A DNA stretch of 55,100 nucleotides from an uncultured archaeon (GTDB taxonomy: Archaea; Thermoplasmatota; Penumbrarchaeia; JASLWR01), in contig CAYSHM010000020.1 of NCBI GenBank assembly GCA_964430885.1, positions 1 through 55,100 of the forward strand, in the 5' to 3' direction. The notes beneath the pieces were generated by a model. That model searched no databases. It saw only the letters and a program-made list of their open reading frames with translations, and had not been told where the DNA came from. A program made the translations under genes and the position numbers. Numbering within the stretch: the first letter of the stretch is position 1; each line of letters starts with the position of its first letter. Of this stretch, positions 10,901-55,100 are shown piece after piece.

Positions 10901-12355
10901 TAGACGAATATCGAAAGGAGACGGATAAATGTCCTTGTCAATATATCCGACATTGTTGGGTGCATATTCGTCTTCAGCCAAAAAGGCTGTGAAGGTTAAT
11001 CTGTAATCGCCTACTGCAGGAGGCATCCAATGAAATGTAACGTTTTCGATCTCTGATTCGATGACGCCCTCTATCTCTCCAGACTCAATAGTTTGCACCT
11101 CTTTTATCATGGAATATCCGCGTCCATCCTCCATGGTTACGGTCATGTTTGCATCTATATTGCCCCAGTTCGCCATTTGAACTGTGACAGGAATGGTCAT
11201 CAGGGGATACCACTGTCCTTTTATTCTGTTCACATCCCAAACTCCGATATCATAGAAAGTTTCACCTCTTATTGTGAACTCTTTTGTGTTACCATCACTG
11301 ACCTCATCATTTCCCATAGTGGTCTCAAGGGTTATGGTATAATCCCTATCCTCAATATCGGGGACTGTCCAATGGAAGGATACAATTGAAGATCCCATAA
11401 CGCTCATTTGGCGGGTGGTTGCGGATGTATCAGTATAGTCGTAGTTATTGCTGGTAATGGTGAGGCTGACCGGGACATTGTTCTGGTTGTTGAATCCGTA
11501 GTTAATAATGCTTGCATTTATTATTATATCTGAATTTGGACGTACCCGGGTATTTGGGACTGGGGAAATAAGGGTTTCCACACCGACATCATTACCCATG
11601 ATGCCAAAGATAATTGACTGCATTGATTGGGGGATTGGATTGCTGTAATATGGCATGTTGAAATGCACCCCGTCACCGTCATTCAGACCGACAGTCAAAC
11701 CGGAGGCGCCGCCCAAGGTCTTGTAATTGAAAAGTATGTTTCCGCTGTCTTTGTAAAGGATCATCTGAAAATCGGAAAGGGCCCCGTTCCAATCGAAGGG
11801 GGTCTTGTACCATGTGGCAACAAATCTGTCAGGATTCGAAAGTGTTTTGTAATAAATACCAGAGTTGGGTGTTGCACTCCAGTAGTATACATACTCCCAT
11901 GCAGGTGATATGACCTTTCTGTAATCGCTATTAGCTGTAGGGAATTGAAGGTTGAAATCATCGCATACTGTAGATTCAAAACTGGCATATCCATGTGTGA
12001 ACAGGTTTATGGATGAATATGTGCTATCGTAGAAATCGAAATCAAAACCGATATTTGCCGATCCCCAACCATCATAACTGAAAGCAATCCTAGTTGCTCC
12101 CTGAAGAGGTTCCTCCCACCGATAGGGTATTGTAGTATCCTGCTGGTAATTGAAACTGGCCCTTGTATCATCGCCTTTGATTTCCGAAGGTGAACCAACT
12201 ATTTCAGAAGAGTTGGGATACATAAAATTTTCCACATCTCCTTTTTGGGTTTTTGCGGTTGTCGGTAAGGTGATCTGAAGACCTGCTGTGACCATGATGG
12301 CCAATAACAAAAGGGACATGATTTTCTTTTTATTGCAACTATTATTCATAGCCAT
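7964..12355 (-). CDS. Very large multi-domain surface protein (nidogen-like N-domain, CARDB/NEW3-type Ig repeats, TM, long Pro/Thr-rich tail)
   Basis: Signal peptide. IGFDFDFYDSTY..FVATW..FQMILY (NIDO-like), many 'I.N.GN..D' Ig repeats, IPETDETNN (CARDB), TM followed by KKSRYR. ATG 12355 lies behind AGGTGT (track start GTG 12364). Confidence 0.75.
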   Translation of the reverse strand: MAMNNSCNKKKIMSLLLLAIMVTAGLQITLPTTAKTQKGDVENFMYPNSSEIVGSPSEIKGDDTRASFNYQQDTTIPYRWEEPLQGATRIAFSYDGWGSANIGFDFDFYDSTYSSINLFTHGYASFESTVCDDFNLQFPTANSDYRKVISPAWEYVYYWSATPNSGIYYKTLSNPDRFVATWYKTPFDWNGALSDFQMILYKDSGNILFNYKTLGGASGLTVGLNDGDGVHFNMPYYSNPIPQSMQSIIFGIMGNDVGVETLISPVPNTRVRPNSDIIINASIINYGFNNQNNVPVSLTITSNNYDYTDTSATTRQMSVMGSSIVSFHWTVPDIEDRDYTITLETTMGNDEVSDGNTKEFTIRGETFYDIGVWDVNRIKGQWYPLMTIPVTVQMANWGNIDANMTVTMEDGRGYSMIKEVQTIESGEIEGVIESEIENVTFHWMPPAVGDYRLTFTAFLAEDEYAPNNVGYIDKDIYPSPFDIRLGHNGTIMKSPPGNAISITFTVYNDGEKKDDIQLNVTEYPSEEEGWTIPLFDHDVLNSLDKESSRKVSMIVAVPASAMAGIKMIKILAASKGDGVTNASLELPIEVLPDPKVEVIAPESSAARPGEFVIYNFTIRNIGNAVDSFSISLKSSNHWETRLLAYSVTPELVPFTDDDNVTVQVKITVPEDALYGSTDILTVTASSMENINIQSSTHIATAVLQKFDIDIKARVLEYNIHTERDVWISFNVTNTGNGDDDTIEFNVSHPYGWKTYVDDSKLHGGLPRLYWGQIFLKVWVPRGTPNDVFPVVVTVLAGKTLEAKDTFTFYFQILPEFGVNITSVKNLQQADNGDMVIYDIAIKNTGNTYEAFNISSGSPHISFQYLNNPLQDLWLDANESAMIKAFLTVPMHWGADSNNTTKDLDPYSFKIMVGYSINPLPISDQTEILLQINPRYEHSILTETKVVEIARKNEGISKDYYLTIENMGNTQDIIYLNLEKASDGPISAVIRTKNLLLSYEESKQVVMTINAENNAALGEYALLLKTTSNGDPSKTKLLNISVPVVDYDFIVDSLTIRNETFSQGEEITLNYNEKTRFMAAIKNTGSEEFEGLAGENLTVSFFLGKTLVYTAELNSIDTQNSKIISFTRELNIYGERTFYVRINEEGIIPETDETNNVFSLKVNIVSPYSNRGRDDKGSEISDGALIFGIILIIVLLSIVVIIFTLIVKKSRYREGYDEEGRYRPDLEVDDATELKIHLDEWGGLSKDETLSIEPAQKSLTDQSADPIPQIGSEQGSPFFPETQPDMPQQHTVLSEEVHQPEPQMTKTVEALDTTGDGKGTALLPPEPLPENDMNLEEPIDGGKMPSEPEIPKPMTKPIAPITTNKDIFQETTPEPQVITESPKVATTRPVSTAPATTTTKPKSAPSMRPVITKRVTTRPLSPGKTTTTKKVTTRPVITKAVTTKPVIDESSDDKIKIATTLPVE

Positions 12356-12412
12356 TCTATACACCTGAAGTCCTATGTGACCGGAGATTGCTTTCTTCTA
12401 TTAGATGCAATC

Positions 12413-30041: not shown

Positions 30042-30920
30042 TCAATCATGCGCTGCTTTTGAAGCAATTGCTTCCCTTATGAATTTGGCTGCCAGGGAGG
30101 ATGTGTTACCGTTATCGTAATTAGGGAATATCTCCACAACATCCAAACCTATCATCTGTTTTCCCAGACCTTGAATGATCTTCATCACCGTAATAGGATC
30201 TAATCCCATTGGCTCCGGGGTCCCGACGCCGGGAGCATAGGCGGGATCGAGCCCGTCCATATCAATGGATAGGTACACCTTGTCATTCCCAATGAATTTC
30301 ATCACCGAGTCGATAATTTCCTTGCCGGAGAAATAAAACGGATCCCTATAACTCAAGTTCATTCTATCGGCATCTCTTTTTTCCCCCTTTTCCATGGATC
30401 TCCCGCCAATGATGATGCAGTTCTCGGCACCGATCAGTTCGCTCACCCTTCTTGTTACACAGGCATGGGAGTTTGGGTCATCCAAATAGCTCTCCCTGAA
30501 GTCGAGATGTGCATCTATACAGACAAATTTCATTCCGGTCAATTGCTTCAGTTCATCCGCTTTAATGATTGCCTTCAATACTGGTGCGGTAATGGAATGT
30601 TCGCCTCCCATGAATATGGATAATGCCTTCTGTTTCATGATTTCAATGATATATGGAGCGGCCTTCTTTTCCACCTCTTCAATGCACTCTGGTTCAATAT
30701 TTCCCAGATCGCATATCTCCAGGTCATCAAGGTCCACATCCAAACGCTGGTTGTATGTCTCGAAATTATATGATTCATCCCTTATATGATCGGGAGCTGA
30801 GGCAGTACCCTTTCTATGACTGGTCGTTCTTTCATAACAAATACCAAGAATAACAAATTTGGCCTTCTCAATTGTAGAAAACGCATCGGCAAAAAGCACT
30901 TTTTCCTTATCCTCGTTCAT
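30042..30920 (-). CDS. speB: Agmatinase (ureohydrolase family)
   Basis: GGEHSIT, DAHLD, SHAC, SIDMDGLDPAYAPGVGTPEP, DVVE. Confidence 0.92.
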   Translation of the reverse strand: MNEDKEKVLFADAFSTIEKAKFVILGICYERTTSHRKGTASAPDHIRDESYNFETYNQRLDVDLDDLEICDLGNIEPECIEEVEKKAAPYIIEIMKQKALSIFMGGEHSITAPVLKAIIKADELKQLTGMKFVCIDAHLDFRESYLDDPNSHACVTRRVSELIGAENCIIIGGRSMEKGEKRDADRMNLSYRDPFYFSGKEIIDSVMKFIGNDKVYLSIDMDGLDPAYAPGVGTPEPMGLDPITVMKIIQGLGKQMIGLDVVEIFPNYDNGNTSSLAAKFIREAIASKAAHD

Positions 30921-41000: not shown

Positions 41001-44000
41001 ATGAATATGTGCGTAGACCGGAAAAATTCTGGAGTATTTTGTTTTCAAACAAAAATTAATAGTATTAGCTGTTTTTTAGTCGTTATATTTCTCATTCTCC
41101 TACCATTTCTAAATCTGATCCGGAGCTCCCCTATGATTGATTCAGAGTCAGATTGGAATAAATTTTCTTCAGAAAATGGTTTCATATGGTCAAAAGATGA
41201 TACAACCGATAGGGGTGGTGAATTATTTGACCAGAGAACCTTATTCAGCAAGCAGTATGAAGCATCTGGACAAAAGAATAAGATGGATATATGGGTGAAA
41301 CCCATTCACTTTCTATCTGACAATGGTTCATTCTCAGATTTTAATAATAGCCTATTTTTCAATAAAGGCCAATTAGGCAACTGGGTAGGAGGGCTAAATT
41401 CTATTGAGTCTAGTTTCAACGATGTTTTCAATCCTGGCGAATCCTTGTTAGAGGTTAAACTAGGTGAGGGTCTCATAGATATGAGCCCTGCATATGCTGA
41501 AGTAATATTTGAAAATAAGGGCGGACAATTCATAAATCCCTTCAAATCAATACCACAGATTGATATCAATACCATCAACTACCCGGATGTATATGATTAT
41601 GTAGATGATCGATATGAGATTCGCCTAGGCAGTATAAAGAACGATATTGTAATACGTTCAAAGGATTTTTTAAATATTACCGATTTATATAATTGTCCCG
41701 TGAATGATTACTCCACCATGGAGGGATCATTGACGTTCTTCACACGCTTAAAACTCTCTCCAGGTATAAAAGTTTCATTTGGCGGATCAAGCAATTACGA
41801 AGGAAATAATGATTATTTGGAATCACGTGAGATTTATTTCAGTTCGGGCGACACTTTTAAAAGGCAGAATCCGGAGGTCATCCGGATGCCTCAGCCTGTT
41901 ATTTATGATTCAAGCTCCGTGCAGAGTAAATTGAAATTGACTGATATAAATCAGATTTCTTCTAATTATAAAATTTTTTGTGACCAAGGCGATAATACTA
42001 TTGGTAAAGAACTGATGGCTGGCATTGAAATTCCGCTGTCATATTTATTGTCTCCAAATACAGTCTATCCGGTTTATGTAGATCCCACCATTGAGTTAAT
42101 ACAGCCGGGTTCTCAGGGTGGGAAAGATAATTTTCTCATAGGTGAGGATGCTTTTTATGATAAGAATGCTGGCGGTGATGATTCCTTTGGGCTGAATTTA
42201 GAGAGCACCGAAAGACTCCGGCCTATTATCCGTTTCAATCTTTCATCCATACCGGAGGACAGCATAATTGAGGAGGCCAGACTTCATCTAAAAATGATCG
42301 ATAAATATTCACAGGCAGGGGATTTGAATCTGGAACTGTACCGCTTAACGCATAATTGGACTGAGGGCACTGGGGATTTCTGGAGTGGGTCAACAACCGA
42401 GGACGGTTCCTGTTGGGATACATATGACGGTATTAATCCCTGGTCCCCTGGAGGTAATTTCGATCATAACCCCGCTGCGGTCAGCACCGCAAATGCCATT
42501 GATTGGTGCAGCTTCGATATCAAGGATCTTGTGAATGATTGGTACAGCGGTAATCAAGAGAACCACGGTCTTCTGATAAGAGGAGTATCAGGTGATGCAG
42601 GCTGGAAACGGTTTGCCTCTTCGGATCATGCTCTGAATACCGAATGGCCCTATTTAAGAATAATTTACGGGCGCAATCCCGTAATTGATGATATATCTAT
42701 TGGACCAAGAGAGATAGTAAAAGGGGACACAGTGAATTTTAATGCAACCTGCCATGATATTGACGGTCAAATAACAACTTTCCAGTGGTTATCTGATTTG
42801 GATGGCGTGATATCTTCAAATAATAATTTCACCGTGACATCTCTCTCACCAGGAAGTCATACTATTCTTTTCAGTATATGGGATAATGATGGATATTCAA
42901 AAGAAATTCCCTGCGGTAAAATCAATGTGAGCGATCCACCGCCTCCTGCGGTTGACGGCATTACGGTTTTCGATACTCCAGATGATCATGGGGGGTCCAT
43001 CACGGTAAAATGGGATTTTCCACACTTGTATGATCTGGATCATTTCGAAATTTATGCCTCAAAGTCGGAACCGAATGTGAACATATCCGGTATAAGTCCG
43101 GATATCACAACGGAAACTCCGAATGTGAGGTCTGTAAACCTAACTTCGGTGGATGGCTGGGCCCTCGAAAATAATATTGATATTTGGATCTCGGTTATTG
43201 GTGTTGATGACATGGAAAACCAAATATATCAGGTAAATTGGTCCGGGCCTGTTAGGTCCTTTGATAATATCCCGCCTTCGATTGTCAAGGGGTTGTTTGC
43301 GGAAGATACCCCTGATGATGAAGGGGCTAGAATTACAATAAACTGGAATCCCCTCAGTTTCGGGATAACTCAGCAGGGGAAGGAGTATTTTGATCATTAC
43401 AATGTATATATCAACAGAACCGCTTTTAATAATGTTGAAGGGATGGAACCGGAGATAAGCAATATTTATTCCTATAAGACGTCAAGCATATTAATAGAGA
43501 CCTGTCAGGGGGATTCCCTCGAACCGGATCAGGAGTATTTTTTTGCGCTCACATCAGAGGATGATTCTGGTAATGAAATCACTAACGTTTCTTCGTTCGG
43601 ACCAGTATTTGCAGTGGACAATATTCCACCGCCAAGAGTAGCCAATATCGAGTGCAGAGACTATCCAGGGGACCAAGGCGGAAAGATCGAGGTTATCTGG
43701 GATTCAGTCAGTACGTCGGATATTCATCATTACAATATCTATTGGGCCTTCGAGAAGATAGTTGACATAGATAATCTTTATCCAGGAAAAATTCACTCCG
43801 CTACTGAAGGCAGCAGTGAGACTGCCGTAATTGACAATCTTATCAATGGAGTGGATTATTACTTTGTAGTGACTTCCGTGGACAAGGAAGGAAACGAATA
43901 TGTGACTGAGCTTGGAGGATACTGGATGACGCCAATGGATAATATTTGCCCATCTAATGTGAAAAATTTCCTAGCATTGGATACACTGGATGATAATGGA

Positions 44001-45326
44001 GGATCCATAACATTGATCTGGGATGAATGTGAATCAGCGGACTTTCATAAATACATGTTATATTCAAGCGTCAATCCAACTATGCAAATGAATGATCTAT
44101 TTGAAGAAGAACCTTTCTTGGAGATTTTCCAGTTGGAAAATAATTCCATTGAAATAAAGGATGTCAAGGGACAGAGCATAGAAGATAGCGTTGAATATTA
44201 TTTTTATATAATTACCGGAGATGTCAATAATAATTTCTGCAAAACGCCCATGAAATCCGGGCCGGTCATTTCAGCGGATAACCGGCCTCCAGTCCTTACA
44301 GGGATTTATTTTTCGGAATTATTCATGGAGGGATCTGCGAATTCCAGTCATAATAAATCCATCAATCTGACCGGGAATAACTGCACAAATAGAAAGGATT
44401 CTCTGCTCAATAGGACCATAATTATCAATTCATCAAGGGAATCTTCTGAATCGGTTAAGAAAATCCAAGATGATATGCATTATCTAAATCTTTCGGCGGT
44501 TTATGAGACCTATGGCGATGAGATTGAATTTGAATGGTATTTAAATGGCAACCTCATATCCAATTTGGATAATTGCGCCATTGACCTCCGACAGCTATCC
44601 TCTGGAAATAATACACTTCTCATTGAGCTTATGGACCCACCTTTTCGAGTTTCTGGCCATCTTGTGATTTTTTTGAATGAAACATTGGGATCCCAAATAT
44701 CGGGAGATTCGGATGAAGGTTTTCTATCTACTTTTCAAATTTATATTATTATTGGATTGGTAATCTTGATGCTGTTGTTGATAATCATTTTTAAAGTTAT
44801 CAGGAGAAGAAGGATCAGGGATGAAAGAAGCAGTGATAATAAGAGATCAAGTAAAGATCAAAGACTAGCGCAGATATATGTTCATAAAAAGGTAAAGGTG
44901 GTGGGATCTGCAGCAAAACCGAAGAAGAGGACGAAACAGGTAGAGGAAAAACATAATCTGTATTATTTGGAGGATGAAGTTGAGAAGCAGTTTTCCTTAA
45001 GCAGGAAACGATACAAAATGGCAGGAAAGAAGTCTGACAAATCATGTGTTATGAGAAACACTTCCAGAGACGAGTTCAAGTGCCCTGAATCCGTTGTGAA
45101 GAAATGCGGATTGAAATGTACTCAAAAAGGAGAATTAGGTTTTACCCCTATTGAAAAGAAGAAAAAGAGAAGACCTAAACCCAATAGAAATCACCCGAAA
45201 TCATCTAAAGGGAAGTGTTCTGGAAGGGCCGATGAATCCCAGGGCCGAAAAAAGGATGAACGGAAAGAAAAGGAAGTGCTGGTCGAAGAGTTCGAAGGCG
45301 GGAAACCACTTCTCGCTACGGAATGA
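41001..45326 (+). CDS. Large surface protein: DNRLRE domain, PKD-like domain, four FN3-like repeats, TM, basic Cys-containing tail
   Basis: YPVYVDPTI, IIRFNLSSIP..A.L.L..WTEG..FDIKDLVNDW..NHGLLI..FASSD..P.L.I.Y (DNRLRE). WLSDLDG..LSPGSHTI (PKD-like). Four DxPDDxGGxIxxxW repeats, then TM plus RRRR. Confidence 0.8.
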   Translation: MNMCVDRKNSGVFCFQTKINSISCFLVVIFLILLPFLNLIRSSPMIDSESDWNKFSSENGFIWSKDDTTDRGGELFDQRTLFSKQYEASGQKNKMDIWVKPIHFLSDNGSFSDFNNSLFFNKGQLGNWVGGLNSIESSFNDVFNPGESLLEVKLGEGLIDMSPAYAEVIFENKGGQFINPFKSIPQIDINTINYPDVYDYVDDRYEIRLGSIKNDIVIRSKDFLNITDLYNCPVNDYSTMEGSLTFFTRLKLSPGIKVSFGGSSNYEGNNDYLESREIYFSSGDTFKRQNPEVIRMPQPVIYDSSSVQSKLKLTDINQISSNYKIFCDQGDNTIGKELMAGIEIPLSYLLSPNTVYPVYVDPTIELIQPGSQGGKDNFLIGEDAFYDKNAGGDDSFGLNLESTERLRPIIRFNLSSIPEDSIIEEARLHLKMIDKYSQAGDLNLELYRLTHNWTEGTGDFWSGSTTEDGSCWDTYDGINPWSPGGNFDHNPAAVSTANAIDWCSFDIKDLVNDWYSGNQENHGLLIRGVSGDAGWKRFASSDHALNTEWPYLRIIYGRNPVIDDISIGPREIVKGDTVNFNATCHDIDGQITTFQWLSDLDGVISSNNNFTVTSLSPGSHTILFSIWDNDGYSKEIPCGKINVSDPPPPAVDGITVFDTPDDHGGSITVKWDFPHLYDLDHFEIYASKSEPNVNISGISPDITTETPNVRSVNLTSVDGWALENNIDIWISVIGVDDMENQIYQVNWSGPVRSFDNIPPSIVKGLFAEDTPDDEGARITINWNPLSFGITQQGKEYFDHYNVYINRTAFNNVEGMEPEISNIYSYKTSSILIETCQGDSLEPDQEYFFALTSEDDSGNEITNVSSFGPVFAVDNIPPPRVANIECRDYPGDQGGKIEVIWDSVSTSDIHHYNIYWAFEKIVDIDNLYPGKIHSATEGSSETAVIDNLINGVDYYFVVTSVDKEGNEYVTELGGYWMTPMDNICPSNVKNFLALDTLDDNGGSITLIWDECESADFHKYMLYSSVNPTMQMNDLFEEEPFLEIFQLENNSIEIKDVKGQSIEDSVEYYFYIITGDVNNNFCKTPMKSGPVISADNRPPVLTGIYFSELFMEGSANSSHNKSINLTGNNCTNRKDSLLNRTIIINSSRESSESVKKIQDDMHYLNLSAVYETYGDEIEFEWYLNGNLISNLDNCAIDLRQLSSGNNTLLIELMDPPFRVSGHLVIFLNETLGSQISGDSDEGFLSTFQIYIIIGLVILMLLLIIIFKVIRRRRIRDERSSDNKRSSKDQRLAQIYVHKKVKVVGSAAKPKKRTKQVEEKHNLYYLEDEVEKQFSLSRKRYKMAGKKSDKSCVMRNTSRDEFKCPESVVKKCGLKCTQKGELGFTPIEKKKKRRPKPNRNHPKSSKGKCSGRADESQGRKKDERKEKEVLVEEFEGGKPLLATE

Positions 45327-45579: not shown

Positions 45580-47274
45580 GTGGTACCCATGAACGTAGAG
45601 ATATCCCCTGTGGCCATTCCGGCCTTCCTTTCAGGAGTTGTCAGTTTGACCTTGGGGTTCTATGTTATATTTAAAAGCTCAAAAGAACTCCAAAACCGAA
45701 TATTTTTCCTATTGATGATTTTCTGCGGTATTTGGTCCCTTGGAGAATTTTTAATGCAGCTGACCAATAGTCCTACCTTTGGGATTTTAGGAGGAATCAT
45801 TTCGAATATCGGTTTTATCTTTGTACCTGCTACTCTTCTTCATTTTTCTATAGTGTACGCTAGGAAATTTAAGAGCAATAAAAAGAAAATGGAAAATCTT
45901 CACCCCCGCTCTCAAGTTGATGAAGGGCCGAAGAAATATTTACTCCTGATGTATTTATTACCGTTTTTCATATCCCTTTTAATAGTATTCACCTCCGCAT
46001 TTTTCCTGATAGAGAAGGTGGTCCCATCGGATAGGATTGTGGATTCTGATGGTGGCGGTGAATACTGCGGGAGCTTCAATTCGATATTATTCATGGATAA
46101 CAATTGCCAATCCACAGAACTATTCGGTGAAGATTCCAAAGAAGATATTGAAAAATGGTTCTTCAAGGATATTAATGGTGATATGAATTATTCAGTTGTT
46201 AAAGATAAACCCGAGCCGATAATGAAATGCAACGGTTCTGCAGTATTGATATTATTTGATTATGACAATCATTCCAATAGTACCGGGAATTCAACCAATA
46301 CCGTTGCTGTAAATAATTCCATGGGCAATGTCAGTATAGGTGACAGCTCCAGTATTGGTAATGGAAGTTTCAACTGCAGTGAAGTCGGCGGGAGTTGGAT
46401 CTCCTTTAAAAATGCCAAGAATAAGGATGACCTCTTTTGGCTTGATGATGAGAAGACAATGGATTCATTGGAAGGTGTATATGATGATGGCGAGACGGTA
46501 TATTTGGATAACGGGAATGGTAAATGGGATTCCCCCAATGCTATTTGGGTGGAAGAAAATGCTGATAACCAGAACTTTGTTTATGTCCAGGGCCCATATT
46601 ATCCCTTCCTGATTTTATCATTTTTTATTTATCTCATAGCTGCTCTGGCCTATCTGTTAAATCATCTAATTACCGCCAAGAAAAAGAAATATAAAAAACA
46701 GATAAAATTCCTAGTAAACGGTCTGTTTGGAATTACCCTATATATTGTAGTTTCACCCTTTTTCCCAAGCTTTCTTCCTGGAATCATCATGGACAGTTTT
46801 CTAACCTTACTATTATCCCTTTTCCTTGCCATTGCGGTCCTCAAGTACAAATTATTGGATGTTCAATTGATCATCAAGAAGAGCTTGACCTATTCAACCG
46901 TGGTATTGACAATCGCTCTTCTATTTACCATAGTGGGTGAAACAGTTGAATTTGTTGTGGGAAATCTTCTGCCCTCTGTATCGGACCTATATTCCAACAT
47001 AATTGCTGCTCTGATCGTATCATTGATGTTCATGCCAATTATAAAAGCCACAAAGAATCTATTCAATCGCCTGTTTCCTAAAATAGCCAGATATGATAAG
47101 GAATATGTAGCTCGATTGACCGCTTACGAGGCGACAATTGAGGCCATGTGGCAGGATGAGATGATCACGGATAAGGAAGAAGAGGCAATCAAGATATTAA
47201 GGAAAAGATTGAATATTCATAAAAACGAGCATGACGATATTTTGGACCGAATTAAGACCAAAAAGACCTTTTGA
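45580..47274 (+). CDS. HisKA_7TM-type membrane receptor with inserted ectodomain and small C-terminal helical domain (no kinase domain)
   Basis: QNRIFFLL..WSLGEF..FVPATLLHFS, GPYY, QIKFL, AIAVLKYKLLDV are 7TM sensor hallmarks. No H-box or HATPase motifs. Start is GTG 45580 or ATG 45589. Confidence 0.75.
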   Translation: MVPMNVEISPVAIPAFLSGVVSLTLGFYVIFKSSKELQNRIFFLLMIFCGIWSLGEFLMQLTNSPTFGILGGIISNIGFIFVPATLLHFSIVYARKFKSNKKKMENLHPRSQVDEGPKKYLLLMYLLPFFISLLIVFTSAFFLIEKVVPSDRIVDSDGGGEYCGSFNSILFMDNNCQSTELFGEDSKEDIEKWFFKDINGDMNYSVVKDKPEPIMKCNGSAVLILFDYDNHSNSTGNSTNTVAVNNSMGNVSIGDSSSIGNGSFNCSEVGGSWISFKNAKNKDDLFWLDDEKTMDSLEGVYDDGETVYLDNGNGKWDSPNAIWVEENADNQNFVYVQGPYYPFLILSFFIYLIAALAYLLNHLITAKKKKYKKQIKFLVNGLFGITLYIVVSPFFPSFLPGIIMDSFLTLLLSLFLAIAVLKYKLLDVQLIIKKSLTYSTVVLTIALLFTIVGETVEFVVGNLLPSVSDLYSNIIAALIVSLMFMPIIKATKNLFNRLFPKIARYDKEYVARLTAYEATIEAMWQDEMITDKEEEAIKILRKRLNIHKNEHDDILDRIKTKKTF

Positions 47275-47288
47275 TTAATTTGCTTGGT

Positions 47289-49055
47289 TTAGATTTCAAT
47301 ATATGGCTCAGCAATAGTCGAGATATTGATGATTCCCGAAACAGCGGCTTTTTCCAATATGTTATTGGTCATTGCCATGAGTCCAAATCCATGGTGATTG
47401 TACGGTGTATATATTTTTGTTTGAATATCATATTCTTTAAATTTCTTGATTAACCGATTCTGTGAAATGTTGAAAATATCTGGAGAATTGGCTCCCATGG
47501 AGTACATATACGGTCCTAATGACCAAACGTCTCCGCTAATCAACTTGGTATGATTGAATACACTGCCCATTGTAGCATTGATGACCAAGCATGTTTTTTC
47601 CTTTAATATTGGTGATGATGCGTGGGATATTATTATTCCCTGGTCATTCAACATCTTGGACATGTTAAAATAGAATTCACGGGTGTAATAAGAAGTTAGA
47701 TATGGATTGCGGGGTTCTAATCTGTCTATTATTATGCAATCAAAATTCCCTAGCATAGAAGCCGTGATATCTTCAGAGAGGCTGTTGTTATTCAAGAGTC
47801 GATCCAGCATCCATGCGGGACTGTTGATCACCTCGACCCTGCGATCACTGAAAGGGGACCTTTGCAGTTTAGAAAAATAATCCTTGGATACCTTTATCAA
47901 TCCTGCATCCTCTTCCATTATTATGACCTTCTCTATGGAGGAATATTTCAGCACTTCTGCCAAAGCTCCTCCGGCACCGCCTCCCACAATAAGTACATCC
48001 TTTGGCTCCTTCAAAGTCATCATGGGAACATGGACCAGTGGTTCATATAATTGGAAATGGTCCCTCTGGGAATAGACCACCTTCATATCAGTATATAGTG
48101 TGAGGTCCAACTCAGGGTGCTTTGATACCGCTATTTCATGGTAATGGTTCTTTTCATAATAAATTACAACACCTTCAAAACGCGACTGCTGCCCGCCGTA
48201 TTTTATCGGTGCTAGATTCACGAGAACAGTTGATAAAATGGTACCTATCACAAAGATGAAGATGAATATTGTTTTGTGCCTTTTTATCCAACTCATCCAG
48301 GCAAATCCCTGGGTCGTGCGTCCTTTCTTTGGGGACTCCTTTTTTTCCTTTGGTATGTCCACTAGAGTTTGGTCGTTATTTGTTCGTTTCATGCCCCCAA
48401 AGAAGCTGACAGCAACAACTGCAGTAAGAATAAGCAGAGAAAGCCCAATGACAAGTTCTAATTTATCCTTGCCTAATTTATCCAGAAGATAAATAGCGGT
48501 AATCGATCCACCGAGAGCAGATCCCAATGAATCAAGAGCGAAGACCATGCCTGCGGTACTGCCGATATCCCGATAAGCATCTGAATCTCTGATCAGAAGT
48601 TTAATACTTAATGGAATGACCCCTCCCATCAGAAGTGGTACAATAGTAATAGTTAATGATATTGTGATTAGTAGCCAAATGTAATGAGATATTTCACCCA
48701 TTAAGGGAATATCTGCTAGAAACATGCTCAGATCGGATGCGATATGGAATAGATTCCCGGTATAGATTATGATCAGACTGGTTACAATTCCTATTAGAAA
48801 AAATACATAGATCATCTGGGTGCTTTTTTTCTTTTTATCTGCCCAGAGCCCGAAGGGTATTGAAGAAAGGTAACCGAGTATGAAGGTGGATATTACCAAT
48901 CCCATAGCAATATTGGAAGATCCAATATACACAATGGCTTCCGCCTGGGCGATTATCTCATAGGCGAAGGAAACAAAACCGAACAAGAATAGAAGAGAAA
49001 GCACTACTAGCTTCCATTTCAGGGGCAGACTTCGTTCAGATCTTATTACTTCCAT
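47289..49055 (-). CDS. Membrane-fused spermidine-synthase-like protein with altered active site
   Basis: About 7 N-terminal TMs (FAYEII.., FALDSLGSALGG), LVHVPM, VLIVGGGAGG, FDCIIIDRLEP, YYTREFY. ATG 49055 lies 4 nt after the upstream stop (track start 49094). Confidence 0.85.
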   Translation of the reverse strand: MEVIRSERSLPLKWKLVVLSLLFLFGFVSFAYEIIAQAEAIVYIGSSNIAMGLVISTFILGYLSSIPFGLWADKKKKSTQMIYVFFLIGIVTSLIIIYTGNLFHIASDLSMFLADIPLMGEISHYIWLLITISLTITIVPLLMGGVIPLSIKLLIRDSDAYRDIGSTAGMVFALDSLGSALGGSITAIYLLDKLGKDKLELVIGLSLLILTAVVAVSFFGGMKRTNNDQTLVDIPKEKKESPKKGRTTQGFAWMSWIKRHKTIFIFIFVIGTILSTVLVNLAPIKYGGQQSRFEGVVIYYEKNHYHEIAVSKHPELDLTLYTDMKVVYSQRDHFQLYEPLVHVPMMTLKEPKDVLIVGGGAGGALAEVLKYSSIEKVIIMEEDAGLIKVSKDYFSKLQRSPFSDRRVEVINSPAWMLDRLLNNNSLSEDITASMLGNFDCIIIDRLEPRNPYLTSYYTREFYFNMSKMLNDQGIIISHASSPILKEKTCLVINATMGSVFNHTKLISGDVWSLGPYMYSMGANSPDIFNISQNRLIKKFKEYDIQTKIYTPYNHHGFGLMAMTNNILEKAAVSGIINISTIAEPYIEI

Positions 49056-49059
49056 CTGG

Positions 49060-50835
49060 TCACATCCAAGGATTTTGCAGTATTGGTCGGTCAAGTGTGG
49101 ATATTCTGGCTTTTTTCATTGCTTCGTCCATGAAAGGATTATCCGCAAGTAGAAAACTGCCCTTGTGTGTATATCCATTGTAATAAACAGTCTCAATTGT
49201 TCGGTTCGTTAACCTATTTTCTATCTCAGCTATCGTGATTTCGTTCCATTTTGATTTTTCACTTCCTATGGAGAAACTCCATGGTCCAAAGGTCCAAACA
49301 TTTGCTAGATAGAGCGATATGTTAGTGAATTCAGCATCAAGGGTCTTAATAATTGAGGCCGTGACCATTGGGTATTCATACCATGAAGCCGATTGAAGTG
49401 CAAAGATACCATTGGGTTTCAGAAGCCCTTGAATGTCGGAAAAAAACTCGCATGTATACAGCATTGCTACCGCTTCGGAATCCGGATCCGGAAGATCACC
49501 TATAACCACATCGAATCCATCTCCAGAATACTCCCTGGCAAATACCCTGCCGTCGGTGGTCAGCACCTTTACTTTAGGATGATCAAAACTACCATTGTTG
49601 ATGCTCTGCAAATATTTCTGTGAGATGTCTATAACCTCTCTATCCAATTCAATCAAAGTTATTTCCTCTACAATATCGTGCTTCAATATCTCCTCTAGGG
49701 TTCCTCCGTCTCCCCCTCCTATAATCAGGATGCTTTTTGGAGAATCATGGCTTATCAACGCGGGATGAACCAAGAACTCATGATACATCTCATCATCCAA
49801 TTCACTGATCTGCATTTGCCCGTCGAGATAAAGGGCAGTCCCGGCGACTGGAATTTCAGTTATCACAATTTCCTGATAACTAGTATCGGTTTGGAATAGT
49901 ATATTGCCTCCGTACATGTCGCTTAAGGGCCCCTGTTCGATATTTTTCATATTTATTGCTACTACAAAAACAATGATCAAGGCGAGAACCGGATAGAAAA
50001 CCATTTTTTTCCTATGTTTCATAGTCCTTTTTCTTTTACAATTTTTCTTTTTATTCCCTTTTTCATCATTGCTGGGGGCGGGATGTTGCTTATTGAAAGA
50101 CACAAGTAGGATCACACCTGCTAGAAGAGTCGTTAATGCAAGTACCACCGATGAATATAATCTGCCAATAAGAGGTATCAGCACTAAAGCAGTAAGGAAT
50201 CCACCCAATGCAGCACCAATACTATCAAATGCAAACACCCATCCAGATATCTGGCCGATAACACTGTAAACCTCATCTTGTTCCTTGTTGTCGTCATCAT
50301 TCTTTCCAATACTGCCTTTAGTGCTGTTTGCCAGTAATTTAATTGCAAAGGGGATTTCAGCCCCCATAATCACAGGGACTACCAAGGAGAACAATCCCAA
50401 TGTTAGAAGCAATACATAGTAATAATCAAGATAATAGAAAAATATCAGATAACTGAGATAATCTGCAATGAAAGGTGCATATCTGAGACACGGTACTATT
50501 ATCACAAGTAAAACACATATCAAACATTCAAGCATAAGCAATTTCGATACGATTTTTATCGGTTCTTGGTTCTTATCAACCCATTTTCCGAAGTAGAAGG
50601 AAGATAGGTAGCCGAGAATGAAGGTAGAGATTATCAAGCCCATAGCGGCGGAAGATGAACCAAGAATTATCACCATTGTCCTTTCCATTACAAGTTCGTA
50701 GCCAAAGGAGCATAATCCGGTGAGGAACATATAGAGGAGTATGATTCGGGGAAATTTTGATTCTTTCATCGAGAGAAAACGTCGGATCTCAGACCCTTTT
50801 TCTTTACCTTTTTTCTCAGACCCTCCTGGATTCAT
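49060..50835 (-). CDS. speE: Membrane-fused polyamine aminopropyltransferase (spermidine synthase)
   Basis: About 7 TMs, then SYQEI, LYLDGQMQ..DEMYHEFLVHP, IIGGGDGG, IELDREV, TDGR, GDLPDP, LYTCEFF. Confidence 0.9.
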   Translation of the reverse strand: MNPGGSEKKGKEKGSEIRRFLSMKESKFPRIILLYMFLTGLCSFGYELVMERTMVIILGSSSAAMGLIISTFILGYLSSFYFGKWVDKNQEPIKIVSKLLMLECLICVLLVIIVPCLRYAPFIADYLSYLIFFYYLDYYYVLLLTLGLFSLVVPVIMGAEIPFAIKLLANSTKGSIGKNDDDNKEQDEVYSVIGQISGWVFAFDSIGAALGGFLTALVLIPLIGRLYSSVVLALTTLLAGVILLVSFNKQHPAPSNDEKGNKKKNCKRKRTMKHRKKMVFYPVLALIIVFVVAINMKNIEQGPLSDMYGGNILFQTDTSYQEIVITEIPVAGTALYLDGQMQISELDDEMYHEFLVHPALISHDSPKSILIIGGGDGGTLEEILKHDIVEEITLIELDREVIDISQKYLQSINNGSFDHPKVKVLTTDGRVFAREYSGDGFDVVIGDLPDPDSEAVAMLYTCEFFSDIQGLLKPNGIFALQSASWYEYPMVTASIIKTLDAEFTNISLYLANVWTFGPWSFSIGSEKSKWNEITIAEIENRLTNRTIETVYYNGYTHKGSFLLADNPFMDEAMKKARISTLDRPILQNPWM

Positions 50836-51692: not shown

Positions 51693-54600
51693 TCATTTAC
51701 TTTTCTTTTCGGTTTTGTATAGTGGTGCCAAAACCTCGATTCTTATTAATTTCGCCTTGCATCTTTCACATTTCTTAATTGCTTTACTGTAATCCCCTCT
51801 TTCCTTTAGATCTTCAATGTCCTCAAGAAGAGGCATTGTATCTTCAATATCAATATTTGCTGTGTTCAATCCTTTCATTCTGTTCATTATGTCAGATAGC
51901 TGTACCCTCAGTTCTTCATATTGATCCATAATCTCTTCAAATAATTCTTTTGACTGCCTCAGTGCCCTTTCGGCATTTCTAATATCGGTCATTTCTAGGA
52001 AATCCCTTCCCTTTTGAATTAGTTCTTTAATAGGATCCAGAATTATTCCCCGATCAATTTTTTCCTTCACCAGGGCTTCAAGATCAGACAGTCCTACCCG
52101 AATTTCATCCTCCTTGGTTCTGATCTGAAGGTCCTCTCTATCAATGATGTTAATCGCATTGTCTATGCAATACTGGATCTTCTCATTTGCTTTGATGTAA
52201 TTACTTCTTGTTATTAGCGATTCAGCCTGTATGATCTCATTGTAAAGTTCATCTACTGCCCATCCTTTGTCTCTGAGAAGTTCCAATATTTCCTTAGTTT
52301 TCTCGAGTACGCCTTCTATTCCAATGTCATTATCCAGGCCTGGGTCTGGAATTATTTTATAATGCATATTGGGAAAACGGGTCCTGACGCTCTCACTTAA
52401 AATTACAAGTTTTCCTGTGGGCAGGTCGTCCATTCTTACAAGTGATTCGTTTATGGGTATTATCTCTTCATTCTTCCCTTTATTATCCCATACTAGACTG
52501 TCTATGAATTCTTGATCTGAATCATCTTTGCTTTTTGATTGAAGCTTTTCATTTTTACTATCATCCACGATACGAGGTGTCCGTTTCTTCGAAGCTTTCA
52601 CTTCAATTTCAGCTTCTATTATTTTCTCTTCCTCCCTGGCGTCTATCAATTTTTCTTTTGTTACCGATGAATGAGGTTGAGAATCAATATATTTTTCATT
52701 CTTGTTTTCCTTCTCCAAGGAATTATGCGCCTCATCAAGATCATCGAATTTAGGGCTTTGGCCTAGAGCCGAGTCAATTTCCATTTCATAATCCTTGTGA
52801 CTGTCATCTTCTAGAAAGGTTTCATTTGTTTCATTTATTTGAACCTGGTTTTTTATTGTATATTCTTTTTCTTCTCCGTTTTTTTGTTGATTTCCATTTA
52901 TATCTGTGTCCGTTTTGCTGTCTGAAATAATCTCTTCTTTGAATAGATCAACATCCTTTTTGATACTGCTTGATATATCAAAGGACATAAGAATATCTCC
53001 ATTCGCCAGCATTTCCTTTGCCTCCTGAAGTTTTGTAAAGATATTTCCGGGATCCATACCCATATCTTTGATCTCCTGCTGTTTATATTTCAGGTTTAGC
53101 AATAAATCGGAAACAAATGTTTCTATGGTCTTCTCCATTTCTCTAACGATTTCTCTGGCTTCAAACAATTCATTTTTTTCTAAAAGGGAAGACAGCTTTT
53201 CAATCTGGGCAGCATAAATAATTTCTTCCTCTTGGAGTTTCATAGTTCTAATATATTCTTTAATTATTTCAAATCGGGAATCCAATTCTTCCATTTGCAG
53301 TTCCCGCTCTTCCAGTATTTCTGCAATATTTTCAAGTTTTTTTAGAAGTTTATTATAATGATGTTTCCCCAATAATTGAGCCAGTTCTTCATCTTGAATA
53401 ATAGTTTTTTCATCAATTTCAGAACCGAGATTTTCCTTCATATTCTTCAATACCTTGTTAACATATTCCTTAAATATGGAATGCCCCTGGGTCATCAAGG
53501 TCTGGCTAAGTTTTGAAGCGCCAATATGATCATCATTGACCTCGGAATTCACGAAATCGTCAAATATTTCGGAGAACTCATCACCTGCGATATTTAATGC
53601 CTTGAGCACTCCCATTAGCTCTTCCAGATGAGGTTTTGTTTCTGAACTGAATCTTTCAGATTCGGTCTTGATTGTTTCCAGTATTCTGTTGTAGATTTCT
53701 TCGACCATGAAAATGGATTCCTGATATTTTCCCTCCACAACAACTGATGAGATAATTGCCAATTCCGATTTGAATCCCTCGACATCTGATGGGTTCAAGA
53801 TTTTGATACCGCTGATATTGTTCAGTCTCTCAAGACTCCGTTCTATCTTCCAATTACAGTATTCACTGCGGATATAATCCTCGATTTTCAAGAGTTCGCC
53901 CTGGACAAGGTCAATGGTATCAATTGCGGATTGGTATTTATCCCTATGGTAATTGCTTCTGGCCCGGGCTAGAGCGGTTTCGAGTTCCTGAAAAATATTC
54001 TCTTCCTCCAAATAGGGCGGGGAACGGTCCTTAAGGTCCAGTAAGGTAAGCCGGAGCTGTTTTATCTTATCCCTGGCTTTTTGAGATGATCTCATGTCTA
54101 TGATAAGAGATTTACAATTATTAATGATCTCCAGAGCGCTTTTATAATCTCCGCGCAGAGCGGTTTCCTCTCCCAGATTGATGAGGTTCTCTATCTGTGA
54201 ATGATCCCCCAGGGAAGTCGTAAGAGTCTTTTGGTATTCCTCTTTGACATCCATCAGTTCTCTGGTGAAATCAATATAATGGACAAGAATGGAATCATAG
54301 ATTGAGGATAAATGTGATATGTATTGCTGGGCTAGGGGGATGTTCCCTCTATCTAACTCTTCCTGTGCGGATAGAAGCAGAACCTTGAGTTTATCAGTAT
54401 CAAAACCCAGTTCTTTAGCATTGCCCAGGGCGGGCTCTACCTTTTCAAGGAACTTATTGTTTTCCTTTTCAATTAGAACTTCCATTATGTCATAGATTTT
54501 TCGAATTCTTTCATAATATGCTTTCCAATTCTCAAAGAAAAGAGGCCGGTGTTTTTTCAGATCGTTGTATGCTTCTTCCATATCTTCATCAACAATCTCC

Positions 54601-54713
54601 ATGCCGCGGCAGATTTTCATCATATCGCCGAGATATTTCAATAATTTTATGCTGTCCCGCATAGCAATTGATACTTCACCAGACCTTATTTCTGTTTCAA
54701 TTTCTTCAGCCAT
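51693..54713 (-). CDS. Large acidic all-helical repeat protein
   Basis: Recurring A/G-x3-L-x2-G-[DN]-[YI]-x2-A turns, a central disordered acidic segment and no TM. ATG 54713 follows GGAG (track start TTG 54743). Confidence 0.7.
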   Translation of the reverse strand: MAEEIETEIRSGEVSIAMRDSIKLLKYLGDMMKICRGMEIVDEDMEEAYNDLKKHRPLFFENWKAYYERIRKIYDIMEVLIEKENNKFLEKVEPALGNAKELGFDTDKLKVLLLSAQEELDRGNIPLAQQYISHLSSIYDSILVHYIDFTRELMDVKEEYQKTLTTSLGDHSQIENLINLGEETALRGDYKSALEIINNCKSLIIDMRSSQKARDKIKQLRLTLLDLKDRSPPYLEEENIFQELETALARARSNYHRDKYQSAIDTIDLVQGELLKIEDYIRSEYCNWKIERSLERLNNISGIKILNPSDVEGFKSELAIISSVVVEGKYQESIFMVEEIYNRILETIKTESERFSSETKPHLEELMGVLKALNIAGDEFSEIFDDFVNSEVNDDHIGASKLSQTLMTQGHSIFKEYVNKVLKNMKENLGSEIDEKTIIQDEELAQLLGKHHYNKLLKKLENIAEILEERELQMEELDSRFEIIKEYIRTMKLQEEEIIYAAQIEKLSSLLEKNELFEAREIVREMEKTIETFVSDLLLNLKYKQQEIKDMGMDPGNIFTKLQEAKEMLANGDILMSFDISSSIKKDVDLFKEEIISDSKTDTDINGNQQKNGEEKEYTIKNQVQINETNETFLEDDSHKDYEMEIDSALGQSPKFDDLDEAHNSLEKENKNEKYIDSQPHSSVTKEKLIDAREEEKIIEAEIEVKASKKRTPRIVDDSKNEKLQSKSKDDSDQEFIDSLVWDNKGKNEEIIPINESLVRMDDLPTGKLVILSESVRTRFPNMHYKIIPDPGLDNDIGIEGVLEKTKEILELLRDKGWAVDELYNEIIQAESLITRSNYIKANEKIQYCIDNAINIIDREDLQIRTKEDEIRVGLSDLEALVKEKIDRGIILDPIKELIQKGRDFLEMTDIRNAERALRQSKELFEEIMDQYEELRVQLSDIMNRMKGLNTANIDIEDTMPLLEDIEDLKERGDYSKAIKKCERCKAKLIRIEVLAPLYKTEKKSK

Positions 54714-55100
54714 ATCAAAACTCCAGCTCTGTTCCATGTACAAATTTGGGTATCTTAACCTGACATTATCTTTCTAAACTTATTTGAGCTATGCCTGTGA
54801 TTGGCATATTCAAAAAGGTTCAGTTCGATGATTGGAAAGATATTATATAAAATATATTATCTCTTGGATGGTAAGGATTGTTAATATCAGGCTTTTTGAG
54901 AGAATATTTAATAGAAAAACCTATAATTTTGTATAGGGACATATTCAATTATTTAACTGCAGGGCAATATTTATTTTTAAAAGCACCCTTGAAGCTTAAA
55001 ATATATTAATATCTGATTTGTTTATATATGTCTGAAATATTTCTTTATGGACTGCACCCCGTTTAGTGGACAATATAAATAGCTTCATCAACAATGGAGG

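Follow-up and report, generated by a model that had tools for sequence, protein, structure and literature searches.

A closely spaced pair of canonical and altered membrane spermidine synthase-like proteins in an archaeon of the Thermoplasmatota: a candidate heterodimer with a transporter-like membrane unit

In a 55,100-nucleotide stretch of DNA from an uncultured archaeon (GTDB lineage Archaea; Thermoplasmatota; Penumbrarchaeia; JASLWR01), comprising positions 1 to 55,100 of contig CAYSHM010000020.1 (GenBank assembly GCA_964430885.1) and referred to here as the window, we found two adjacent genes on the minus strand that each encode a polytopic membrane protein with a C-terminal domain of the spermidine synthase (SpeE) fold. 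The upstream gene, P0001 (49060..50835; an open reading frame of 591 codons plus a TGA at 49062-49060), encodes a protein with about seven transmembrane helices and a complete canonical site and is predicted, with considerable confidence, to be a membrane polyamine aminopropyltransferase. The downstream gene, P0002 (47289..49055; 588 codons plus a stop codon, starting from the ATG at 49055), encodes a divergent paralogue. The reading that we tentatively prefer, while giving it slightly less than even confidence, is that the two proteins form an obligate heterodimer in which one subunit is active and dependent on decarboxylated S-adenosylmethionine (dcSAM) and the other is a noncatalytic, prozyme-like partner, with the enzymatic domains facing outward and the membrane parts forming a transporter-like unit.

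Separated by a spacer of only 4 nucleotides (CCAG, 49056..49059, minus strand), P0001 and P0002 look translationally coupled. An in-frame TTG at position 49094 offers an alternative start for P0002, with which the overlap with P0001 would be 35 nucleotides, but alignment of orthologues favored the region of the ATG. The two proteins align end to end (BLASTP; 27% identity over 577 residues, E = 6e-66), both match the Spermine_synth domain PF01564 (150.3 bits for P0001 and 107.2 bits for P0002; cutoff, 22.9), and hydropathy places about seven hydrophobic helices N-terminal to this domain in each. An earlier reading of this DNA, made from the sequence alone (the sequence-only reading), had already proposed two coupled paralogues with a 4-nucleotide gap, each consisting of about seven transmembrane (TM) helices and a Rossmann domain, and the open reading frames, BLASTP, and PF01564 agree with it. 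The near-identical second TM helix (TM2) to which it had drawn attention is likewise present, reading SSSAAMGLIISTFILGYLSSFYF in P0001 and SSNIAMGLVISTFILGYLSSIPF in P0002 (AMGL[IV]ISTFILGYLSS).

Both genes have orthologues elsewhere. A search of 5.8 billion proteins returned 12 orthologue clusters for P0001 (51 to 58% identity) and 13 for P0002 (41 to 48% identity), the latter from marine Thermoplasmatota-type metagenomes. An exhaustive HMMER search of 1.84 billion representatives yielded only seven proteins at E ≤ 1e-30, and the subfamily is therefore narrow. Similarly, a scan of species-representative genomes gave only three loci (L001, L002, and L003), the closest loci being from Thermoplasmatota-type metagenome-assembled genomes. 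At all three loci where the divergent copy is present and its DNA is available (the window, L001, and L002), this copy adjoins a canonical one, so that the pairing highlighted by the sequence-only reading extends beyond a single genome; in L001 and L002, the canonical copies (P0044 and P0045, with GGGDGG and DLPDP) lie immediately upstream, and the junction is TGATG, a 1-nucleotide overlap. L003 holds a single canonical-type gene, P0016, and no second copy was found on its 6.6-kb contig, which spans 2.1 kb upstream and 2.8 kb downstream of that gene. Additionally, five canonical/divergent cluster pairs have longest contigs of the same size (6773, 5445, 10221, 4373, and 170939), which is indirect evidence that the two copies share contigs.

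In a maximum-likelihood tree (41 rows, LG+G4, quick search, with the Shimodaira-Hasegawa-like approximate likelihood-ratio test [SH-aLRT] as the only support measure and nine outgroup rows hand-picked from hit lists), the canonical (14/14) and divergent (14/14) sequences formed separate clades, each with an SH-aLRT value of 100, and the internal topologies of the two clades mirrored each other. The duplication is therefore older than the radiation of the lineage. The stem of the divergent clade was the longer of the two (0.99 versus 0.62). Between L001 and L002, the ratio of nonsynonymous to synonymous substitution rates (dN/dS; Nei-Gojobori) was 0.060 for the canonical and 0.170 for the divergent gene, with values for the membrane and catalytic halves of 0.076 and 0.046 (canonical) and 0.153 and 0.190 (divergent), all of them taken from this one genome pair, since dS is saturated between the window and either L001 or L002.

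The lower orthologue identity of the downstream copy, its longer stem, and a dN/dS about three times that of its partner would suit a decaying, functionless duplicate, an explanation to which we nevertheless attach hardly any probability. The divergent gene is full length, without stop codon or frameshift, in all 14 members of its clade, as the sequence-only reading had noted for P0002 itself, and its dN/dS is far below 1. When 13 canonical and 14 divergent sequences were compared column by column (conservation being set at ≥90% identity), 89 TM columns and 96 catalytic-domain columns were conserved in the divergent clade, and the AlphaFold2 (AF2) model of full-length P0002 reached a mean predicted local distance difference test (pLDDT) score of 90.4 (predicted TM-score [pTM], 0.75). 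On the basis of the intact length in 14/14 clade members and the dN/dS of 0.17, we ruled out P0002 as a pseudogene. Neither relaxed selection nor occurrence in this genome only was thus found, in line with the sequence-only reading: the dN/dS stands at 0.17 and there are 13 orthologue clusters.

The two copies differ most tellingly in their SpeE-fold domains. That of P0001 (residues 310 to 564; 49144..49908, minus strand) contains the glycine loop GGGDGG at 49702-49719, with Asp376 as its acidic residue, and that of P0002 (residues 296 to 572; 47340..48170, minus strand) reads GGGAGG at 47967-47984, with Ala361 in the corresponding place; both loops had been placed exactly, codon by codon, in the sequence-only reading. 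Key positions were mapped via a profile alignment and via alignments to solved structures. All 13 of them are canonical in P0001 (QDQYHE-D-E.D-D-D..DP; motifs YQ, LDG..Q, YHE, TDG, and DLPDP), as had been claimed for the upstream copy, and the same complete residue set characterizes the canonical clade as a whole. P0002 reads H D V L Y E-A-E.D-P-D..EP (motifs YH, TDM..V, LYE, SP, and DRLEP); these letters had been given correctly, but two aspartates within the motifs presented as changed, Asp323 (the Asp of "LDG") and Asp444 (the first Asp of DLPDP), are actually retained. The fold itself is shared: the closest solved structure to P0001 is 7xif (E = 2.6e-50), and the full-length model of P0002 matches solved SpeE structures with TM-scores of 0.76 to 0.86 (Foldseek, target normalized). 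In NCBIfam, both proteins score below the equivalog cutoffs of NF002956 (P0001, 286.5, aligned over residues 29 to 545; P0002, 180.6; cutoff, 472), NF002010 (246.0 and 152.8; cutoff, 260), and TIGR00417 (216.9 and 117.0; cutoff, 249.55), while NF037959 (cutoff, 40) is passed by P0001 (67.1 bits) and failed by P0002 (21.5 bits).

Across the divergent clade (n = 14; P0002 plus 13 orthologue clusters), all proteins follow the pattern [N/H], [N/D], V, [L/Q/F]-[Y/F]-E, a nonacidic residue at the dcSAM-Asp site, E.D, a variable position, and D..E-P. At the dcSAM-Asp site, 11 of these proteins have Asn, 2 have Ser, and 1 has Ala. Ala is peculiar to this genome, and the weight that the sequence-only reading had placed on it as the key, possibly conserved substitution was misplaced. 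L, Q, or F has taken the place of the catalytic Tyr in 14/14 (Leu336 in P0002, with Tyr337 adjoining it), and six residues (P, G, Y, F, M, and L) replace the adenine-binding Asp. The Asp444..Glu447-Pro448 motif, on the other hand, is retained in P0002, and DRLEP, previously taken as abnormal, was rejected as a sign of rewiring: D..EP is not aberrant, since the solved Bacillus subtilis spermidine synthase 1IY9 has DSTEP at the aligned place. Loss of the dcSAM-amine Asp, the catalytic Tyr, and the adenine-binding Asp makes it very probable, judging by these residues, that the P0002 domain is no longer an aminopropyltransferase. According to PMC3725402, the Asp is thought to repel the carboxylate of S-adenosylmethionine (SAM), the D103I replacement abolishes spermidine synthase activity and yields weak methyl transfer, and the analogous D101I replacement in Thermotoga maritima lowers kcat about 2000-fold.

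We give even weight to the P0002 domain being noncatalytic or regulatory, as its residue pattern would allow, and see a SAM-using transferase as less likely than such a prozyme-like partner, indeed as rather improbable. In its most specific, slightly less probable form, this alternative holds that the divergent subunit is an active transferase on intact SAM within the heterodimer, passing a methyl or aminocarboxypropyl group to a polyamine, to the product of its partner, or to a protein N terminus. Loss of the Asp would remove the repulsion of the SAM carboxylate, the low methyltransferase activity of D103I spermidine synthase sets a precedent, as does (PMC10349129) a fungal N-terminal histidine methyltransferase (NHMT) with seven TM helices, a spermidine synthase-like domain without the acidic residue, and a required TM part, and the Asp is also missing from 48/48 of the double-bundle relatives described below. 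In a 16-sequence alignment that includes all 14 divergent-clade members (A1), no variation occurs in the glycine loop (G359, G360, G362, and G363), the ribose-binding Glu381, Asp383, or the catalytic Asp444-x-x-Glu447-Pro448. Furthermore, 26 catalytic columns are conserved in both clades with different residues, including (canonical > divergent) Q340>K325, D348>H333, H352>Y337, and D452>R449, and the basic gains K325, H333, and R449 could bind a carboxylate. A catalytic-domain dN/dS of 0.19 is also in its favor. The conserved cofactor-site features and these columns are as compatible with a change of activity as with its loss. What speaks for a loss is that the Asp site is not fixed, that the adenine-binding Asp and the catalytic Tyr have given way to six and three residues, respectively, and that far more catalytic columns are conserved solely in the canonical clade (50, out of 151 conserved there) than solely in the divergent clade (10). 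Moreover, P0002 lacks any Pfam methyltransferase match at E ≤ 0.1, whereas P0001 has weak ones, and the companion Thr of plant putrescine N-methyltransferase (PMT) is absent from the Gln79 position, the only companion site mapped. The specific analogy to PMT, drawn in the sequence-only reading from a hydrophobic Ala, was rejected, with Asn or Ser at that site in 13/14 proteins and Tyr at the Gln79 position.

The membrane parts of both proteins appear to consist of a six-helix bundle resembling one half of a major facilitator superfamily (MFS) transporter. This bundle spans residues 28 to 250 in P0001 (50086..50754, minus strand; TM2 included), as delimited by hydropathy and a bundle hidden Markov model (HMM), and residues 12 to 228 in P0002 (48372..49022, minus strand), as delimited by an AF2 model of the TM part alone (residues 1 to 290; pLDDT, 87.1) and its Foldseek matches. 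Foldseek returned only SpeE structures for the full-length P0002 model. For the TM-only model, almost all of the top 50 matches were MFS transporters, among them 9d7v (polyamine bound, "spd-bound structure"), FLVCR1/2, Spinster, YajR, DgoT, VMAT2, MCT1, and NorA, aligned over about 200 to 230 columns or roughly half of each target, with query-normalized TM-scores of 0.4 to 0.49 and with E values that were all at least 0.028, none reaching 0.001. MFS_1 of Pfam scored 30.4 bits in P0001, below its cutoff of 33.4, and gave no match in P0002; look-alikes of the TM part in the ESM Atlas all belonged to the NF002956/PRK03612 and NF037959 families.

Relatives with two bundles in a single chain put this architecture in context. 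The bundle HMM, built from residues 28 to 250 of P0001 and run over 248 proteins (P0001 to P0248), matched 132 of them, with one bundle per chain in P0001 and P0002, and matched 48 twice at nearly the full length of the profile, 36 in the order bundle-bundle-domain and 12 in the order bundle-domain-bundle. A search for longer proteins that might represent a fused form of the pair added 15 distant relatives, all 15 of the bundle-bundle-domain type. Two SpeE-fold domains in one chain were found in none of these 63 double-bundle relatives (48 + 15), each of which has one. Since the single-chain units thus combine two bundles with one transferase domain, single-bundle proteins would have to dimerize to match their membrane unit, and a dimer of this kind would have one transferase domain to spare, which offers a simple reason why one domain could drift after duplication.

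Buried acidic residues of the bundle follow the state of the catalytic site. P0001 has a Glu in TM4 (E160, 50356-50358) and an Asp in TM5 (D204, 50224-50226), and P0002 has Val146 in place of the former (48618-48620) and retains the latter as Asp175 (48531-48533), all four codons on the minus strand having been checked. Among the 74 single-bundle proteins, the catalytic Asp is present in 53, the TM4 Glu in 66, and the TM5 Asp in 68; 14 of the 21 proteins without the catalytic Asp make up the divergent clade. The 48 double-bundle proteins, in comparison, have no catalytic Asp (0/48) and next to no TM4 Glu (0/48 and 1/48 in the two bundles), and at their TM5 position, Asn alternates with Glu in the first bundle and with Asp in the second. 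Going by these residue counts, buried membrane acidic residues accompany a dcSAM-type site. dcSAM has one more positive charge than SAM, and we infer that the bundle may handle the same class of cationic ligand as the domain, either dcSAM or an amine. At the TM4 Glu position, P0002 has Val and P0003, its nearest relative, has Thr, while the other 12 divergent proteins keep the Glu; the sub-lineage of the window is therefore further along in losing residues that the family conserves. Many of the double-bundle relatives, which are annotated as "fused MFS/spermidine synthase" proteins, carry C-terminal TPR repeats in precomputed Pfam lists, and this feature of proteins lacking the Asp suggests that they might act on protein or polymer substrates rather than on free polyamines.

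We modeled the membrane parts of P0001 (residues 25 to 302) and P0002 (residues 8 to 290) as a complex, with a 68-row alignment for each. The TM-domain heterodimer obtained ipSAE values of 0.63, 0.64, and 0.67 in three runs, and the best of three controls obtained 0.00; in the calibration of the tool, the mark was reached by 116/157 solved complexes and by 2/215 mismatched pairs, custom alignments being uncalibrated and a pass lending support to binding without demonstrating it. The heterodimer envisaged by the sequence-only reading hence passed as a TM-domain model (ipSAE, 0.64 versus 0.00 for the control). Contacts agreed to at least 82% between runs, and the partner pLDDT was at least 68. 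TM2, the helix with D..G...GG (TM5), and the last part of TM4 (MG.E.P) form the predicted interface. Of the 45 interface positions in P0002, 40 have their counterparts at the interface of P0001, which makes the interface pseudo-twofold. In the divergent clade, 28/45 interface positions are conserved, versus 55/170 other TM positions (Fisher p = 4.7e-4). On the strength of this model, we consider it fairly likely that P0001 and P0002 heterodimerize via their bundles. The earlier proposal of a heterodimer built from two half-MFS bundles is thus supported in its pairing and in its bundles but not in its likening of the second subunit to PMT.

The same model does not discriminate the heterodimer from a homodimer, both chains having been given the same 68-row alignment. 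Each of the two proteins might then be a homodimeric membrane enzyme with its own two-bundle unit, and a common operon would be all that links them. Solved SpeE enzymes are homodimers or homotetramers, and P0016, the relative in L003, is single-copy; with no second copy nearby, it must form a homo-oligomer if it pairs at all. Still, we regard separate homodimers as improbable, given the tight coupling (a 4-nucleotide gap or TGATG) at 3/3 loci, the mirrored trees of the two clades, the concentration of conservation at the predicted interface in the divergent clade, and the loss of the TM4 Glu from P0002 and P0003, which would be more tolerable if the bundle of a partner provided that residue.

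As for the orientation of the complex, loop charges were highly asymmetric. In A1, lysines and arginines prevail after TM2 (46 K/R versus 19 D/E) and TM6 (181 versus 20), while acidic residues prevail after TM1 (1 versus 11) and TM3 (1 versus 17); the loop between TM6 and TM7 contains 12 K/R versus 2 D/E in P0001 and 11 K/R versus 4 D/E in P0002. This K/R-rich loop precedes a linker helix (TM7; about residues 277 to 299 of P0001, 49939..50007, and residues 261 to 279 of P0002, 48219..48275, both on the minus strand), and a hydrophobic helix of this kind separates the domain from the last bundle in 114 of 122 membrane-type proteins. In those 114 proteins, the 15 residues before it contain 422 K/R versus 59 D/E, and the 15 residues after it contain 214 versus 238. 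Bundle-domain-bundle proteins have a helix from the domain to the second bundle in 12/12 cases and one from the first bundle to the domain in 11/12, and no helix was found between the two bundles in any of the 36 bundle-bundle-domain proteins. This layout is the one expected if the domain sits on the side opposite the termini of the bundle. MFS bundle termini are cytoplasmic, and the positive-inside rule would, in combination with this, place the SpeE-fold domains outside the cytoplasm. We hold it somewhat more probable than the reverse that the catalytic domains face outward, as these charge patterns suggest, and are less sure that the bundle pair serves as a supply route. The divergent domain contains 3 to 6 N-x-S/T sequons per 295 residues, where shuffling predicts about 2 (14/14 proteins), and the canonical domain contains 0 to 3, where about 1.3 are expected; the excess might reflect an exposed, glycosylated surface or chance.

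Alternatively, the SpeE-fold domains could be cytoplasmic, with the bundle pair acting as an ordinary polyamine exporter or importer in a synthesis-transport metabolon. dcSAM is a cytoplasmic metabolite, and to our knowledge all characterized SpeE enzymes are cytoplasmic. Furthermore, residues 160 to 228 of P0002 (48372-48578) form one unbroken 69-residue DSSP helix in both AF2 models; if this is a single span, there are six TM helices and the C-terminal domain lies on the side of the N terminus. Hydropathy reads the same segment as TM5, a 4-residue loop, and TM6, so that seven helices is a provisional count. We nonetheless rate a cytoplasmic location as unlikely, because, throughout the family, a strongly positive stretch precedes the linker helix and a neutral one follows it and because the helix positions in the bundle-domain-bundle proteins differ from those in the bundle-bundle-domain proteins in the way described above.

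Taken together, the sequences show the gene structure, the homology, the conservation, the selection, the residue patterns, and the domain architectures. The heterodimer that we tentatively prefer would work as follows, its pairing, topology, loss of one activity, any transport, and indeed all function being what we infer. Each subunit would bring a SpeE-fold domain, a linker TM helix, and an MFS-like bundle of six helices. Packed against each other via TM2, the end of TM4, and TM5, as the N-terminal and C-terminal halves are in a 12-TM MFS transporter, the bundles would form one transporter-like unit. P0001 would supply the complete site for dcSAM and diamine and carry out aminopropyl transfer; P0002 would supply the second bundle, and its SpeE-fold domain would be noncatalytic, possibly ligand binding, and "prozyme-like." With one active domain, such a heterodimer would recreate the 2:1 stoichiometry of bundles and transferase domains that the single-chain relatives display. 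The SpeE-fold domains would lie on the outer face of the membrane, and the paired bundles, in which a Glu and an Asp are buried, might be the route by which a cationic ligand (the donor dcSAM or an amine) reaches the site.

To the evenly ambiguous cofactor site, the single genome pair behind dN/dS, the weak Foldseek E values, the unbroken helix, and the inability of the complex model to separate heteromeric from homomeric pairing, further points that weigh against this reading have to be added. The interface of the canonical clade is not significantly more conserved than the rest of its TM part (32/51 versus 94/175; p = 0.27), close cousins of a true partner also pass this kind of complex test, and the ipSAE value may profit from the resemblance to solved MFS folds and their two halves. 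Additionally, we know of no extracellular supply of dcSAM. Going further than the preferred reading, one could imagine a natural "split MFS" as a conduit that passes dcSAM or a polyamine to an outward-facing aminopropyltransferase at the cell surface, with the second domain retooled for SAM and modifying the product or a surface protein, and, by extension, the whole "fused MFS/spermidine synthase" family facing outward with its own donor channel; this we consider a long shot.

Convergent to the pair, at 45580-47274 (plus strand) and 15 nucleotides from its gene end, lies a gene for a membrane protein that has a split HisKA_7TM region (PF16927) with a large inserted loop but lacks a kinase domain. 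A HisKA_7TM protein is convergent to the pair at all three paired loci (L001, 10805-12772, minus strand; L002, 9930-11951, minus strand), in L001 and L002 at a distance of one or two genes, with a gene for a small helix-turn-helix protein located in between; the proteins of the window and L001 share 46% identity over 380 residues (E = 2e-110). A functional link of this protein to the pair is possible. The upstream neighbor of the pair is not conserved. About 17 kb from the pair, at 30042-30920 (minus strand), the window encodes a member of the arginase family (PF00491, 230 bits) that might be an agmatinase or an aminopropylagmatine ureohydrolase, and no SAM decarboxylase gene was found among the 32 window open reading frames scanned against Pfam. 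The pair is flanked by genes for very large predicted surface or coiled-coil proteins (41001-45326, plus strand; 51693-54743, minus strand; 7964-12364, minus strand): one of 1441 residues that combines PKD, fn3, and disaggregatase-like repeats with a TM anchor at its C terminus, one of 1016 residues without a Pfam match, and one of 1466 residues with CARDB and Ig-like domains. The gene content of the window is archaeal, as its genes for a proteasome alpha subunit and for a phosphopantothenate synthetase of the archaeal type show.

Membrane-fused spermidine synthase-like proteins are widespread and have been named by annotation pipelines. Both families are already known as annotation labels, and loss of the Asp, pseudoenzyme partners, and MFS fusion each have a precedent. 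However, in the literature searched (subscription journals being outside its scope), including PMC11107197, five things are apparently undescribed: the conserved, coupled pair of a canonical and an Asp-less membrane protein; the half-bundle logic; the 2:1 stoichiometry of the fused relatives; the covariation of membrane and catalytic acidic residues; and the outward-facing prediction. The 2:1 stoichiometry and the predicted outward orientation also go beyond the sequence-only reading. The same literature yielded no experimental account of the membrane-bound or MFS-fused spermidine synthase families. If the heterodimer is real, it would represent a natural MFS-like unit made from two half-size gene products and the first prozyme-like partner of an aminopropyltransferase, and this in an archaeon. 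The positively preceded linker helix, together with membrane Glu and Asp residues that covary with the dcSAM Asp, suggests a transferase that lies across the membrane from the cytoplasm and would be fed via its own conduit; if true, this would be an unrecognized way to bring SAM-type chemistry outside a prokaryotic cell. P0001 and P0002 would also make a clean test system, in which an active site and an altered one occur together in a defined, predicted complex.

The nearest named relatives are NF002956/PRK03612 (membrane-bound polyamine aminopropyltransferase) and NF037959, which, like the pair, have an N-terminal polytopic part and a C-terminal PF01564 domain; these are annotation labels, and their definitions do not include a tandem of a canonical and an Asp-less copy. 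Plant PMT was derived from spermidine synthase via loss of the GGGDGG Asp, which is likewise lost in P0002; PMT is soluble, has Ile at the Asp103 position together with Thr at Gln79 and Val106, and keeps the adenine-binding Asp, whereas the divergent clade has Asn, Ser, or Ala at the first of these positions, Tyr337 at the Gln79 position, and has lost the adenine-binding Asp. NHMT (AN4663 of Aspergillus nidulans), whose substrates are secreted proteins and whose methyltransferase activity depends on its TM part, shares with P0002 the layout of seven TM helices followed by a spermidine synthase-like domain without the acidic residue of GxG(D/E)G (PMC10349129). It differs in being a fungal, endoplasmic reticulum-resident protein encoded by a single gene without a canonical partner, and its authors regard the TM part as unique to filamentous fungi. 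By analogy, its layout may serve as a precedent for an outward-facing domain. MFS transporters are matched by the TM-only model over about half of the target, and each bundle contributes its TM2, TM4, and TM5 to the predicted interface; however, in an MFS transporter both six-helix bundles are part of one chain, while here there is one bundle per gene, with an MFS_1 score below the cutoff and weak Foldseek E values.

Finally, paralogous partnerships are known from soluble enzymes of polyamine metabolism. The Arabidopsis SpeE-fold enzymes SPDS1, SPDS2, and SPMS form heterodimers as well as homodimers (PMC3466176), all of the partners being active and soluble, unlike P0001 and P0002. Pseudoenzyme partners are known from the polyamine pathway of Trypanosoma brucei, namely, the prozyme of AdoMetDC and the dead paralogue of deoxyhypusine synthase (PMC5201418 and PMC3663545). 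Each is, like P0002, a paralogue that lacks catalytic residues and is under selection, with a heteromer shown or proposed. The T. brucei prozymes are soluble and eukaryotic and their activation has been measured, whereas P0002 is archaeal and polytopic and would also provide half of a membrane unit. No prozyme-like partner of a spermidine synthase was described in the literature searched. Part of what would be expected of a prozyme is recognizable in P0002: it is the paralogue of an active-type enzyme, it has lost catalytic residues, and it is under purifying selection, and contact with the active paralogue is supported by the predicted TM-domain complex.

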